DNA from: Octopus vulgaris
Taxonomy: Eukaryota
Direction of reading: 5' to 3'
Assembly (NCBI GenBank): GCA_951406725.2
Contig: OX597814.1
Location: 7,440,001-7,504,000, forward strand
Length of the DNA: 64,000 nucleotides
A program made the translations under genes and the position numbers. The notes beneath the pieces are model-generated. The model saw only the letters and a program-made list of their open reading frames with translations, searched no databases and was not told where the DNA came from. Shown piece by piece: positions 39,328 to 58,470 of this stretch; positions within the stretch are counted from its first letter, which is position 1; the number at the start of each line of letters is the position of its first letter.

Positions 39328-41549
39328 ATGGCTGCCGTGCAGACGACAACAACAGCGACCAGTTCTCTTATTCTTTCAATCATTCTTATTATCACACTGA
39401 CATCACTAAACATCGATGCGAAGGAACTCGGCAATGATTGTGAAGTTAAAATCCCTCCCAATATCGGTGAGATTTTATCTCGTTTAGTGAAATTAGAAAA
39501 AGAGGTTTTCAATTTTGAAGTCCATTTATCAAACAAGACACTTGATGAACTTCTTAATCCTGTGGCATTGGATTATTTTGCAAATGCGAGGAGTTTTACG
39601 TGGATTCCAGATAAATCAGGCGCTTTAACTCTATATAGAACTTTCTCCTATGATTTTTCAATGCACACTTTTAATATGTTGGACGTCTACGTTGCTAAAC
39701 AAGGGATTGATATCAATATCACTTGTGGAAAACAAAATATTCAGAGACACGATTTAATATATTTGATATTCGACGCATTGAAAAGAATCATATTTATGGA
39801 CAAATTGCAAATGGGAGAATCTGGATACATGTGTTTTTATATAAATATGTCTCAATACATGAAGAAGAACAGCCCTCACTCATTTGAAACTTACAGAAGA
39901 ATTGGCATAAATAGAGAAATTATAAAGAACTATTGCTGTAAACTCTATAAAAATGAAAGTAATCTTTATCGCCCCAAATCCATTTGTTCAGGAAAAATCA
40001 TTCAAAATGCTAACTTTTAAATTATTTAGATATTTTCGGAGGGGTTTTGTGGCTATTTTCCCCATTAATTATTAGTTTTGTATCAAAAGCTAAATTACCT
40101 TCACATTCCCGTCAACTCAATCTGCCACTGTTTGCTCACGATGAATTCTTATTTACAATTAAAAACACATTGCCACACGAATCCGAGTGGATCAATGGAA
40201 AACATAATATTTACACATTCTCACATTTTCTGTCTTGGGTATTTTGTTTCCACAATTCCTCTTTCTTTGCCTCAAGACTAAGAAGATTCCTTTGTATTCT
40301 ATTTTCACTTTCAGTACTCTTACTGGAACTTTTGATGCATTACTTCTTTTTATATGAAACAATAGAAATTCTTTACCAAGATGGTATACCATTGGGCTAT
40401 CGCGCCCTAATATTAGGAATCCCAGAAAGTTATGAGAATACTGATGGCTTTTTTGGTGGTCCTTTTGTGTGGTTAATCTGTTACGTATCTTTCAACTTTA
40501 TCCTCTTCGTTCTTCCCAGTCGTTTAAGTGAGACTATCGCTTATAATACGTTACGTCAAAGATCCACTTTCACGTTTCTCATTCAAAATATCACATTATT
40601 AGAGAAGTATGGCAGTTTAAATGTTTCTACTCTACAGGATTATGATCTACTCAATGCAGTAATGGAAGCTAATGTTTCTACAGCTTTAAACCCAAATTTC
40701 TGGTATTTAATAATTTATACTTGGAGTAATCGTATAAAGAAAATTTGGTTATATTACTACAGGAGAAATATTTTCTGGCAATTCTTTACACTTTGGCTCT
40801 GTGTTTCCATTACAATTTTATTTGCTGTATTTTCTGTCTGTGAATTATTTCTGTGCCTCATTTATTATGGAATCCCAATTGTTTATCTGATTTTAACTTT
40901 ACCATTAAGTTATTTCAGAGTTTATATTTACCCCCTGTATTTGAATCCTAACTATATTTTCAAGATTATTGCTTTCATTTTAACATTCATATCGTTTCCA
41001 TGTTTTCTAGTGTGGGCAATTTATTCAATCTATATATCTCTTACAAGTTTTCAAGTCGTTTTCGGCTACATATTTTCAATGGCTGTTGCGCTACTTGCTA
41101 AGCCTTATACTGTTGGTGATATATGGTTTGTTTCCATGTTTCTTCTCTATGGTATTGCAATTATAAAATCTATTCAGGAACGGTATGACTTTATTCTACT
41201 CGAATCCATTAAGCTCACCAAAATTCTTCGTCCAAATTTAGTTCAGTCAAAATATGGGGAAGAATTCATAAACGCCACTTTGTTTAAGACAATTGTTAAC
41301 CAGCGTTTTCCATTGAGAAATGAGATTGGTAAATCCATTGTAAAATTGTTTCTAATCGTAACCTTTTTCTTTGCTTGCAACAATATAATAAGTCGAGAAG
41401 AGTTGCACTTATCAGCATCCACAAAGATTACTTTGATATTGATGACGTCTATGATACCTAAATTTTTGTCTATAGTAAATGCAGATCGTAGGTTAACAAT
41501 AACCATGTTAGATAAAATGATCCAAACAATAAACTTATTTGAAGAATGA
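39328..41549 (+). CDS. Uncharacterised intronless multi-pass membrane protein, copy A (~740 aa if one frameshift at ~40015-40020 is corrected)
   Basis: ORFs 39328..40020 and 40047..41549 join when compared with copy B, which has one more base in the T-run; N-terminal hydrophobic signal, ~200-aa ectodomain with 6 Cys and NKT/NIT/NMS/NES sequons, about 9-11 hydrophobic segments; splice acceptor TTTTTACAG at 39317. Either a pseudogene or an assembly indel. Confidence 0.75.
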
Positions 41550-42189
41550 AATACATCACGGAGAAGTTTATCAAGTTATTTGATATTCTTCGATACGATG
41601 AAAAGTACATAAGTGTGCTTTATGGATTATTAACTACACTGTATAACATAATAATAATAATAATAATAATAATAATAATAATAATAATAATAATAATAAT
41701 AATAATAATAATAATAATGCTTTCTAGTGGAGACATAAAACCTCAAATTTGTGGGGCATTCACTAGTCGATTATATCGACTCCAGTATTTCACTGGTATT
41801 TCATTTATCGACTTACATGCACACGCACACGCACATATATACATCTAAATGGACAATCTGAAAAACAATTCTTCATTGCTTAATCTTATCTTTCTGTCTG
41901 GTTTAATCCAGGTTTTTGTTTATTTTGTTTCGAATCGAATAAAGAATTTATTTTGATATCAACTATAATGTTGTTTGACTTTCTTCTCCGAATCCACGCT
42001 TCTGGGCGCTCTGTATTATTATTCTCTATCCATTTCTGAGTTTGTGTGTGTTTATGTATATGTGTGCATGGGTTTGGGTGCGTGTGTATGTGTGTGTATT
42101 AATCAAACAGTTGAGACTCATTGTTGGGTCTGTCAAAAGAATTGAAAAATGAACAACCCTCAAAATCAAGAACTTAGAGGAATTGCAAA

Positions 42190-55290: not shown

Positions 55291-56248
55291 ATTGAGGAGG
55301 CCAAAAGTCAACAATGTGTTGAAGTATTGAATCAAAAGGATCTAACTCTTTTAATTCAATCCCTTGTCGCCAAATAAACTCAACGTTTTAGAGGGGAGAT
55401 GGCCTAATTTTTGAATGGCAATTTTTTACTGGGGCTGAGGCAACTGAAAAGTGCCAAAGAATCGTTGAAAACAGGGCAAATTGGAAAAACGTGCTTGCAG
55501 GGAGCAGTCACTTACTGTGCTTCATTATTAGCAACGCCACTGGAAGAATGCAAGAGAGACAAAGATTTACATCAGTAAAATGTTTTCAGTAGGAATTTTG
55601 CCATTTAATGAGTTTGCTTCGCTAGAGTTGATCAGAGCGGCTGTAAAAAGCTAACTTTGTTTTTATGTTAAAAGTTATATGAATAACCTAGAACACTGAA
55701 TGGAGGAGTAGAATATTAGACAATAGTGACACTGGGGGACTTTATAAATTCAGTATCTTTTTTTATATTTGCTTTTTAAACGCTGGTTATTGCAGATAAA
55801 AAAATCATCTGTTCCATTGTGGTGTTGAGGAGTTTCACAAACTCGTACAATCAGATGTTAATCGACTGTTAATAAAGAGAACTGTTTTTTACGTCATCTA
55901 TATTGAAACCTGCGTATTTTCAGTTCAAATATAACTTGATTCAGTTATGATGCTAATTTTAATACCTTGAACTAGGTAGCATCGAATGCAATAGAACATC
56001 TCCTGCAACCGTTGAATAGAACATCTCCTGCAACCGTTGAATAGAAAATATTGACCTTGAAACGGGGATATGTTTAACCATAAAAGAGGTACTCGGCAAC
56101 AGAAAAATGCATTGATTTCTCAGATACATTGACCACAACACTTATGATTATTTCGTAACATTGCAAATGTCTATGAAATAAAGAAACGGAGTCGAATCTT
56201 CATTACTTAATATGCTTTGTTTTTTCATATTTTTACAGATAACCAAAT

Positions 56249-58470
56249 ATGGCTGCCGTGCAGACGACAACAACAGCAACCAGTTCTCTTATTCTTTCAA
56301 TCATTCTTATTATCACACTGACATCACAAAACATCGAAGCGAAGGAACTCGGCAATGATTGTGAAGTTAAAATCCCTCCCAATATCGGTGAGATTTTATC
56401 TCGTTTAGTAAAATTAGAAAAAGAGGTTTTCAATTTTGAAGTCCATTTATCAAACAAGACACTTGATGAACTTCTTAATCCTGTGGCATTGGATTATTTT
56501 GCAAATGCGAGGAGTTTTACGTGGATTCCAGATAAATCAGGCGCTTTAACTCTATATAGAACTTTCTCCTATGATTTTTCAATGCACACTTTTAATATGT
56601 TGGACGTCTACGTTGCTAAACAAAGGATTGACATCAATATCACTTGTGGAAAACAAAATATTCAGAGACACGATCTAATATATTTGATTTTCAAGGAATT
56701 GAAAAGAATTTTATTTATCGATAAATTGCAAATGGGAGAATCTGGATACATGTGTTTTTTTATAAATATGTCTCAAGACATGAAGAAGAACAGCCCTCAC
56801 TCATTTGAAACTTACAGAAGAATTGGTATAAATCGAGAAATTATAAAGAACTATTGCTGTAAACTCTATAAAAATGAAAGTAATCTTTATCGCCCCAAAT
56901 CCATTTGTTCAGGAAAAATCATTCAAAATGCTAACTTTTTTAATTATTTAGATATTTTCGGAGGGGTTTTGTGGCTATTTTTCCCATTAATTATTAGCTT
57001 TGTATCAAAAGCTAAATTACCTTCACATTCCCGTCAACTCAATCTGCCACTGTTTGCTCACGATGAATTCTTATTTACAATTAAAAACACATTGCCACAC
57101 GAATCCGAGTGGATCAATGGAAAACATAATATTTAAACATTCTCTCATTTTCTGTCTTGGTTGTTTTGCTTTCACCATTCCACTCTCTTAGCCTCAAGGC
57201 TGAGAAGATTTCTTTGTATTCTATTTTCTCTTTCAGTAATTTTCCTGGATCTTTTGATGCATTACTTCTTTTTATATGAAACAATAGCAATACTTTTCCA
57301 AGATGGTATACCATTGGGACATCGCGCCTTAATATTAGGAATCCCAGAAAGTTATGAGAATACTGATGGCTTTTTTGGTGGTCCTTTTGTGTGGTTAATC
57401 TCTTACGTATCTTTCAACTTTATCCTCTTCGTTCTTCCCAGTCGTTTAAGTGAGACTATCGCTTATAACACGTTACATCAAAGATCCACTTTCACGTTTC
57501 TCATTCAAAATATTAGATTATTAGAGAAGTATGGCAATTTAGATGTTTCTACACTACAGGATTATGATCTACTCAATGCAATAATGGAAGCTAATGTTTC
57601 TACAGCTTTAAACCCAAATTTCTGGTATTTAATAATTTATACTTGGATTAATCGTATAAAGAAAATTTGGTTATATTACTACAGGAGAAATATTTTCTGG
57701 AAATTCATTACACTTTGGCTCTTTGTTTCCATTACAATTTTATTTGCTGTATTTTCTGTCTGTGAATTATTTCTGTGCCTCGTTTATTATGGAATCCCAA
57801 TTGTTTATCTGATTTTAACTTTACCATTAAGTTATTTCAGAGTTTATATTTACCCCCTGTATTTGAATCCTAACTATATTTTCAAGATTATTGCTTTCAT
57901 TTTAACATTCATATCGTTTCTATATTTTCTAGTGTGGGCAATTTATTCAATCTATATATCTCTTACAAGTTTTCAAGTCGTTTTCGGCTATATATTTTCA
58001 ATAGCTGTTGCACTACTTGCTAAGCCTGGTACCGTTGGTGATATATGGTTTGTTTCCATGTTTCTTCTCTATGGTATTGCAATCATAAAATCTATTCAGA
58101 AACGGTATGACTTTATTCTACTCGAATCCATAAAGCTCACCAAAATTCTTCGTCCAAATTTAGTTCAGTCAAAATATGGGGAAGAATTCATAAACACCAC
58201 TTTGTTTAAGACAATTGTTAACCAGCGTTTTCCATTGAGAAATGAGATTGGTAAATCCATTGTAAAACTGTTTTAATCGTATCTTTTTTCTTTGCTTGCA
58301 ACAATATAATAAGTCTAGAAGAGTTGCACTTATCAGCATTCACAAAGATTACTTTGATATTGATGACGTCTATGATACCTAAATTATTGTCTATGATAAA
58401 TGCAGATCGTAGGTTAACAATAACCATGTTAGATAAAATGATCCAAACAATAAACTTATTTGAAGAATGA
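56249..58470 (+). pseudogene. Uncharacterised multi-pass membrane protein, copy B; nonsense codon at 57134-57136 and 1-bp deletion near 58272
   Basis: Colinear with copy A over the full 2222 nt; TAC->TAA substitution and a frameshift in GTTTT; acceptor AG at 56237-56238. Confidence 0.8.

Follow-up and report, generated by a model that had tools for sequence, protein, structure and literature searches.

The window analysed here, a stretch of 64,000 nucleotides (nt) from Octopus vulgaris (contig OX597814.1 of assembly GCA_951406725.2, positions 7,440,001 to 7,504,000), carries two broken copies, called A and B, of a gene for a multi-pass membrane protein. They belong to an old animal family that is expanded in octopods and that is undescribed as far as our searches reach, with the Pfam entry PF28478 as a caveat. 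In the reading that we favour, and to which we give about even chances, this ancient family forms a repertoire of ligand-sensing receptors that are neither G protein-coupled receptors (GPCRs) nor Cys-loop receptors. Copies A and B are ordinary pseudogenes or alleles that were mis-assembled, and it is the family that is of interest. From the overall picture drawn in a preliminary description of the sequence, the unnamed multi-pass family with birth-and-death evolution stands, while a strictly intronless gene, variability focused on the ectodomain and a local tandem pair do not.

Copies A and B (Table 1) are 2222 nt long each and 96.3% identical. Copy A starts at the ATG at 39328 and has an in-frame TAA at 40018-40020, at which site it is 1 nt shorter than copy B, followed by an open frame of 511 codons to the TGA at 41547-41549. 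The same premature TAA is found in a family copy at C1:206.37 Mb, which argues for a real lesion and against a one-off error. In copy B, which runs from the ATG at 56249 to the TGA at 58468-58470, the frame is interrupted by a TAA at 57134-57136 and by the loss of 1 nt near 58273, where a TAA follows at 58274-58276. Public contigs from two runs have the in-frame base at 58273, and some of the single-base lesions may be assembly errors. Since the lesions of the two copies are at different places, the 740-amino-acid (aa) reading, put forward originally from two paralogues that complement each other, is correct, and intact paralogues of 737-740 aa, called P0001 and P0002, were also found. The six Cys and four N-glycosylation sequons ascribed to the ectodomain are present in both copies, within their first 230-232 codons. 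Copy B is 97.2% identical in amino acids to the intact P0002 of O. sinensis over 675 positions.

The protein work was done on the intact P0001 (737 aa), which is 92-95% identical to the pieces of copies A and B, and not on a joined A/B sequence. With an alignment of 101 sequences, AlphaFold gave a model of the whole protein with a mean predicted local distance difference test score (pLDDT) of 86.3 and a predicted template-modelling score (pTM) of 0.82. The ectodomain alone, modelled as a seven-strand mixed alpha/beta domain, reached 89.9 and 0.86, respectively. The topology was derived from hydropathy, the AlphaFold helices and loop charge, and not from the model coordinates. The 9-10 hydrophobic helices, in agreement with the 9-11 hydrophobic segments first counted, suggest about nine membrane crossings. 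The near-invariant residues are C130, C166, C200, P243, R314, R317, G374, G375, P376, P394, F455, W456, R466, E503, P514, Y605, Y617, P659 and P708; the three ectodomain cysteines among them are present in at least 90% of the 101 sequences and E503 in 97%. The EFIN..LF..IV.QRFPLR segment, described earlier as conserved-looking, corresponds to the family motif gIp..LF..vv..hrP.r.

A profile search against 1.84 billion representatives yielded 136 proteins at E <=0.001, most of them matching across both the ectodomain and the membrane part. Being representatives at 50% identity, these correspond to many divergent lophotrochozoan clusters. Among the 18 homologues looked up, six clusters carry species names (Mytilus, Ostrea edulis, Mercenaria, Haliotis asinina, Tubulanus and Lingula), and the bivalve, abalone, nemertean and brachiopod homologues are named 'uncharacterized' or 'hypothetical'. 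A deeper profile reached the protein P0214 (E 4.9e-10), whose 22 relatives include the octocorals Paramuricea clavata and Dendronephthya gigantea. When the lophotrochozoan and octocoral alignments are compared with hhalign, the probability is 99.3 and the pairwise E 2.4e-20 over 597 columns; the match extends over almost the entire protein and includes the ectodomain Cys frame, the first transmembrane helix (TM1), the motif that precedes TM2 and the module of three TMs at the C-terminus, while the middle aligns poorly. The mollusc and cnidarian relatives that the preliminary description had tentatively suggested are thus real. A signal-like hydrophobic N-terminus is present in 67 of 87 full-length lophotrochozoan homologues and in 17 of 18 octocoral-type ones.

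A precomputed match to PF28478 exists on one of the 22 octocoral-type homologues (P0248), and a newer Pfam release may therefore hold part of the family, probably without a function. The literature searched, with supplements and most subscription journals outside the search, contains no paper on the family and no mention of PF28478 or of six RefSeq LOC identifiers of family members. RefSeq members of the family include LOC106875165, LOC106877663/4/6, LOC115209402 and LOC115211026. The gene clusters named in the available part of PMC9068888 are those of protocadherin, C2H2, S-crystallin, acetylcholine-receptor-like, reflectin, suckerin and beak-protein genes, and the family is not described in the available parts of that paper, PMC13218726 and PMC11526382, supplements again being outside the search.

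We now consider the gene structure. In nearly all copies inspected, a pyrimidine tract and an AG are found about 10 nt 5' of the ATG. The transcript evidence consists of contigs of public runs, presumed to be RNA and without tissue label, and two studies gave leaders that could be mapped. In these contigs the alignment ends at the AG before the ATG and other sequence continues. An in-frame TAA follows the acceptor AG in copy A, which indicates that the upstream exons are non-coding. One leader maps to an exon ending CAG/GTAAAT about 14 kb upstream of the paralogue at C1:207.08 Mb, and it also matches two places without a known family gene. Near-identical copies of the leader exon and its flanks were seen at L045 (C1:9416045) and L047 (C29:31775316), where no family coding exon was found. 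A second leader maps to the window 3.2 kb upstream of copy B and is followed there by GTAAGA (Table 1). All of its 19 genome matches are in family arrays, and at 14 a family ATG follows 3-11 kb downstream on the same strand. The other match in the window, at 63666-63697, is probably a duplication relic. A third leader (run X6) has no exact match in the genome. Since the leaders join at genomic GT-AG sites, family members are spliced transcripts. The contigs mismatch copies A and B at several sites, and the spliced transcripts are assigned to the family and not to the window copies. The gene is therefore not intronless as had been stated, having an intron in the 5' untranslated region (UTR) that ends 10 nt before the ATG, and the single coding exon stands. 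The reservation that the genome might contain no intact, expressed paralogue does not apply, as there are intact paralogues and splicing was seen in members of the family.

In the genome of the window, 81 matches were obtained with the membrane part as query and 54, at 52 loci, with the ectodomain; these locus counts are lower bounds, which uncollapsed haplotypes could inflate. This provides, for this genome, the copy number that the preliminary description had proposed to determine across cephalopod and other invertebrate genomes. An open frame of at least 730 aa is present at 27 of the 52 loci, one of which (L004) is frameshifted just after the ATG, leaving 26 intact and the remainder broken, in keeping with the birth-and-death expansion first envisaged. 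The arrays are at C1:205.6-207.1 Mb and C5:16.2-16.5 Mb, with outlier loci at C1:0-0.1, 7.48-7.53 and 216.1 Mb. A subfamily at C5:16.30-16.49 Mb (L031, L032, L033 and L034) carries ~24-aa repeats, whose number varies, within the first cytosolic loop, with open reading frames (ORFs) of about 800-950 aa. Four family copies that resemble main-array subfamilies are found at the contig start (C1:1-105869), possibly as another displaced block.

The intact paralogues are under purifying selection, the mean ratio of nonsynonymous to synonymous substitution rates (dN/dS) being 0.39 when 24 of the 26 intact copies are compared in all pairs; the two left out are the C5 copies whose loop repeats are longest. 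The uncorrected ratio of nonsynonymous to synonymous differences (pN/pS) among paralogues is 0.46 [0.42-0.51]. Most variable are the C-terminal tail (pN 0.276), helix 540-588 (0.231) and TM1 (0.208), the last two being where paralogues differ most inside the membrane part, and the lowest values, about 0.09-0.10, belong to residues 660-714, the loop at 349-375 and the cytosolic region at 393-478. A helix periodicity of the variation is significant in two of ten helices, 592-612 (p <0.001) and 664-685 (p 0.036). In 592-612 the variation is on the hydrophobic, probably lipid-facing side, and it therefore marks no pocket. The trees of the three gene thirds reject each other in the approximately unbiased (AU) test (p <=0.0012, log-likelihood gaps of 92-310), in which each third's own tree is favoured by construction, and L008 and L011 group together in the ectodomain only. 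The paralogues are thus mosaic, in agreement with gene conversion. In the tree, the O. bimaculoides and O. sinensis proteins are nested within the clades of paralogues, the single Argonauta protein seen being placed outside them. As the proteins of the Octopus species interleave with the paralogues, the expansion predates these species and is still ongoing.

The pair in the window is not the simple local tandem pair that it had been taken for. Copy B is 99.1% identical in nucleotides to L013, a copy in the main array that is broken elsewhere, and the stretch from 44598 to 94672, beyond the window end, is colinear with a segment of the main array 198 Mb distant (Table 1). This block may be a recent duplication or an uncollapsed haplotype. 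Because both the block and the unit around copy A match the main array, the A/B pair is a displaced piece of that array, either real or mis-scaffolded. A third family copy, inverted, is found 26 kb past the window end (C1:7529345-7531467; L024, L038), with a frameshift near codon 637. Its counterpart at C1:205.868 Mb has many more breaks although the block identity is 99.4%, which suggests indel errors or fast decay.

What, then, could the family do? A disulfide-linked ectodomain kept since the cnidarian-bilaterian ancestor, a conserved core and tandem turnover are together best read as a ligand-sensing repertoire. By prediction, the signal peptide is cleaved off, the ectodomain is a compact alpha/beta domain linked by disulfides, the chain crosses the membrane about nine times and two large helical regions are in the cytosol. 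A joint binding site for the ligand would be made up of the ectodomain, the outer end of TM1 and that of the long helix 540-588; with the variation spread over these three elements, specificity would involve the membrane-proximal part too. The conserved core, presumably comprising the intramembrane E503, Y605, the kinks at P243/P394/P514/P659/P708 and the SRLRR and IP..LF..V...P cytosolic motifs, would translate binding into an ion flux or recruit a cytosolic partner. The repertoire would be retuned as genes duplicate, convert one another and disappear, in the manner of chemoreceptor families, for which tandem clusters and birth-and-death are typical according to the part of PMC11526382 available.

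It is important to note that several points weigh against the receptor reading. The same source states that all multigene families undergo birth-and-death, and the genomic profile is therefore not receptor-specific. The ectodomain, variable according to the preliminary description, has a pN of 0.150 [0.131-0.169] as compared to 0.143 [0.131-0.155] for the membrane part and is thus no more variable, whereas in octopus chemotactile receptors the sites under selection are concentrated in the ligand pocket (PMC11526382, same part). In no region does pN/pS exceed 1, the highest region-level (not site-level) values being 0.68 for the C-terminal tail and 0.63 for 540-588. Furthermore, the 349-375 GGP loop, the most conserved extracellular loop in molluscs, is poorly aligned in the octocoral members, and the transcripts are assigned to the family and not to copies A and B themselves. 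A more far-reaching version of the receptor reading, which we regard as tentative and on balance doubtful, is that the family is a receptor superfamily predating the split of cnidarians and bilaterians, with an ectodomain fold and a membrane architecture of its own. Octopods would have expanded it to dozens of genes and would use it as one more chemosensory system, next to the chemotactile, ionotropic, GPCR and GR-like (gustatory-receptor-like) receptors, with an undescribed gating or signalling mechanism.

An alternative, in our view rather unlikely, is an uptake receptor or transporter, in which the ectodomain would capture a carrier or a hydrophobic solute and the membrane part would pass it inwards, in the manner of STRA6 without being STRA6. 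A conserved Glu within the membrane, in a protein that crosses it about nine times, would suit such a function, and the variability within the TM helices at 540-588 could line a substrate path. UniRef even names two O. bimaculoides members, P0007 and P0008, 'Receptor for retinol uptake STRA6'. However, NCBI calls P0007 uncharacterised, and the label is unsupported, as PF14752 matches none of the 20 octopod members, these two included, at E up to 1; it also matches none of 56 homologues at E up to 0.01. Dozens of recent, mosaic and half-broken copies would moreover be unusual for nutrient transporters. Gene conversion and rapid loss would agree with a diversification, driven by pathogens and brought about by gene conversion, of immune or self/non-self recognition receptors or of effectors that disrupt membranes, an explanation that we likewise hold to be unlikely. 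Lophotrochozoans and octocorals have large innate-immune expansions, and the many divergent clusters among the 136 lophotrochozoan representatives and in octocorals could be seen in this light, as could weak S_4TM matches in 3 of 11 octocoral-type proteins. These matches are, however, far below the cut-off (13-16 vs 26.9 bits) and on different regions, no immunoglobulin, leucine-rich-repeat, lectin, TIR or death domain was found in any scanned member, and the variation of the ectodomain is not in excess.

That the protein is a membrane enzyme or has a structural or biogenesis role, for example in matrix or cuticle modification, with an expansion that is dosage-driven or largely neutral and helped by long interspersed nuclear elements (LINEs), seems to us improbable. 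Broken loci make up half of the total, the copies are embedded among pieces of LINEs and DNA transposons and there is a single conserved acidic residue in the membrane, as this explanation would have it, but the near-invariant columns, mostly Cys, Pro, Gly, Arg and aromatic, lack a catalytic constellation of His, Asp and Ser, and paralogue lineages are retained across Octopus species with dN/dS below 1. The chance that the ORFs are an artefact, that is, repeats or a mobile-element gene, is negligible. It is true that the window repeats the main array at 97-99.4% identity from 44.6 kb on, possibly as an uncollapsed haplotype, and that assembly errors may underlie some single-base lesions, but the purifying selection, the spliced leaders, the homologues in four phyla and the premature TAA that copy A has in common with the C1:206.37 Mb copy all speak against it, and haplotype duplication would reduce the copy count without abolishing the family. 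A transposon-encoded protein was rejected as a candidate: no transposase, reverse transcriptase or ORF1 domain was found in the octopod members and homologues scanned, the copies are clustered in arrays and the leaders are spliced.

An animal family this large, this old and with such a high turnover that lacks an assigned domain, fold or function is rare. If it is truly a receptor repertoire, it represents a new class of invertebrate sensors, and the 26 intact single-exon ORFs are directly testable. Even if it is a transporter or an immune receptor, the ectodomain is a good target for structural biology. The automatic 'STRA6' label on family members should be corrected.

Table 1. Features of the two copies and their surroundings (window positions) and layout of the protein (residues of P0001)
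Feature	Position	Strand	Basis
Copy A coding exon, broken (TAA 40018-40020 and 1-nt loss)	39328..41549	+	sequence; model from P0001
Copy A predicted layout: signal-like N-terminus, ~195-aa Cys-linked ectodomain, about 9 TM crossings	39328..41549	+	P0001 model
Pyrimidine-rich tract and acceptor AG of copy A, 10 nt upstream of the ATG	39300..39317	+	contig loose end 39315; contig start 39318
Copy B coding exon, broken (TAA 57134-57136; 1-nt loss near 58273)	56249..58470	+	sequence
Leader exon 3' end (5' UTR), upstream of copy B; donor GTAAGA at 53048	53016..53047	+	contig loose end at 56237
Copy B putative 5'-UTR GT-AG intron, 3191 nt	53048..56238	+	contig of close paralogue or allele
Second copy of the leader exon end; no family coding exon found downstream on the same strand	63666..63697	+	sequence match
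Window part of ~50-kb block	44598..64000	+	97.0-99.4% identity, colinear with main array, G000:C1:205822458-205872826
Duplication unit around copy A	36082..41712	+	96.0% over 5.6 kb to P0001 locus, G000:C1:205656385-205661988
Predicted signal peptide, then ectodomain	33-226		P0001 model
Predicted TM; disordered cytosolic loop after it, repeat-expanded in some C5 copies	229-249		
Predicted TM; then a conserved outer loop that contains two short helices and GGP	318-340		
Predicted TM; then cytosolic helical region with NP.FW...R	376-394		
Predicted hairpin with E503	483-532		
Predicted 49-residue helix	540-588		
Predicted TM; then cytosolic helix, beta-hairpin and IP..LF..V...P motif	592-612		
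Predicted TMs; then cytosolic tail	664-685 and 694-714		

The surroundings of the copies contain a number of other elements. The C-terminal part of a non-LTR (long terminal repeat) retrotransposon ORF, with a weak zf-RVT match, is found at 13498-14844 (+), with fragments at 47262-49157 and 50496-51038; a 97-99% identical copy of this ORF adjoins several family loci and may seed unequal crossover. Between the two copies, at 43495-45872 (-), there is a fragmented LINE, whose endonuclease ORF (PF14529) is preceded by an ORF with Cys/His-rich repeats and a Myb/SANT (PF13837) ORF. Another LINE endonuclease fragment is present at 9033-10341 (+), and a weak DDE_Tnp_1_7 (piggyBac-like) fragment at 36999-37418 (-). 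An open frame of 410 codons at 3441-4670 (+) encodes 13 C2H2 zinc fingers, typical of the octopus C2H2 expansion. Two tandem repeats were also noted, a 94-bp array at 10316-11876 (16.6 copies, 97% matches) and a 22-bp GC-rich minisatellite at 17967-20555 (about 118 units).

Finally, we compare the family with known families and folds. No Pfam family was found at cut-off in the four window pieces, 20 octopod members, 56 homologues (of 100 homologues of alignment A2 or nearby matches) and 11 octocoral-type proteins. The best match to PDB sequences, searched with P0001 and the alignments A1, A2 and A5, was unrelated (E 0.089), and ESM Atlas gave no usable match for P0001 and P0198. A full-length match to a characterised family or a transposon protein, named beforehand as the result that would overturn the first reading, was accordingly not found. 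The check by AlphaFold and Foldseek that had been proposed gave confident models and no significant fold match. For the whole model, which at 737 residues is above the size advised for single-domain fold matches, none of 172 matches in Foldseek PDB and none of 129 in BFVD reached E <=0.001. The best of 48,161 VIA chains had a Z of 7.7, with none at 8 (root-mean-square deviation (rmsd) 2.5, 72 residues aligned, 589-720), and corresponds to a generic three-helix bundle in SID1; a second look gave at best Z 5.8. For the ectodomain, the best VIA match had Z 2.9 (rmsd 3.9, 85 aligned), with 23 chains at Z >=2 and none at 5, the best Foldseek E was 0.22 and a second look gave at best Z 2.7. STRA6, GR/Orco and TMEM16/OSCA are not among the fold matches listed for the two queries, the whole model and the ectodomain. 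This blank neither excludes them nor proves a new fold.

The family resembles GPCRs with ectodomains (class B/adhesion and class C) in combining a signal peptide, an ectodomain and a TM bundle, and single-exon rhodopsin-type chemoreceptors in its single coding exon with a 5'-UTR intron, but its hydrophobic helices number more than seven. P0001 lacks the motifs [DE]R[YF], NPxxY and CWxP, in line with the absence of rhodopsin DRY/NPxxY motifs reported at the outset, and among 87 full-length homologues NPxxY occurs in four and CWxP in one, unaligned. No 7tm Pfam match of the rhodopsin type was found in window pieces, octopod members or homologues, and none to 7tm_2/7tm_3, GAIN or Venus-flytrap domains in octopod members, homologues or octocoral-type proteins. 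Partial overlays on GPCR bundles were seen at Z 6.0-6.2 (rmsd 4.1-6.4, 121-157 residues); the weak ones on class C structures cover TM1 and the C-terminal helices and have Z values within the helical-bundle background (9ut8, Z 6.1, rmsd 6.4, 144 aligned; 9jr0, Z 6.0, rmsd 5.8, 157 aligned). TRP channels, which are not known to have a signal peptide, share the long cytosolic and interfacial helices and supply the top Foldseek rows for the whole model, which are not significant (E 1.2-1.4, TM-score <0.1; second look Z 5.8, rmsd 3.9, 71 aligned); Ion_trans and PKD_channel gave no Pfam match in octopod members and homologues. TMEM16/OSCA/TMC, otopetrin, LMBR1 and NRF-6 acyltransferases had none above cut-off in any scanned set.

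STRA6, with nine TMs, is similar in TM count and in its large cytosolic parts. It is not known to have a signal peptide or a ~195-aa Cys-linked ectodomain, both of which are predicted for the present family, and the family differs also in its multi-copy arrays. The insect-type gustatory and odorant receptors, which are 7TM channels, share the large tandem arrays, the birth-and-death evolution and the status of candidate non-GPCR chemosensors. Their N-terminus is intracellular and not known to carry a signal peptide, whereas that of the family is a predicted secreted ectodomain with conserved Cys and sequons, and 7tm_7/7tm_6 gave no Pfam match in octopod members and the 56 homologues.

A close parallel in octopus biology is offered by the chemotactile receptors, of which there are 26 genes in O. 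bimaculoides (PMC9068888 and PMC11526382, available parts) and which are likewise an octopus-expanded tandem cluster with an N-terminal ectodomain on a membrane domain. As noted in the preliminary description, the family does not have their Cys-loop four-TM layout: there is no Pfam match to Neur_chan_LBD or the four-TM domain in the window pieces and octopod members, the ectodomain model is mixed alpha/beta and there are 9-10 hydrophobic helices. Unlike the chemotactile receptors, the family has about nine rather than four TMs, twice the copy number and a variation that is not focused on the ectodomain, and it is also present in bivalves, a brachiopod, a nemertean and octocorals.

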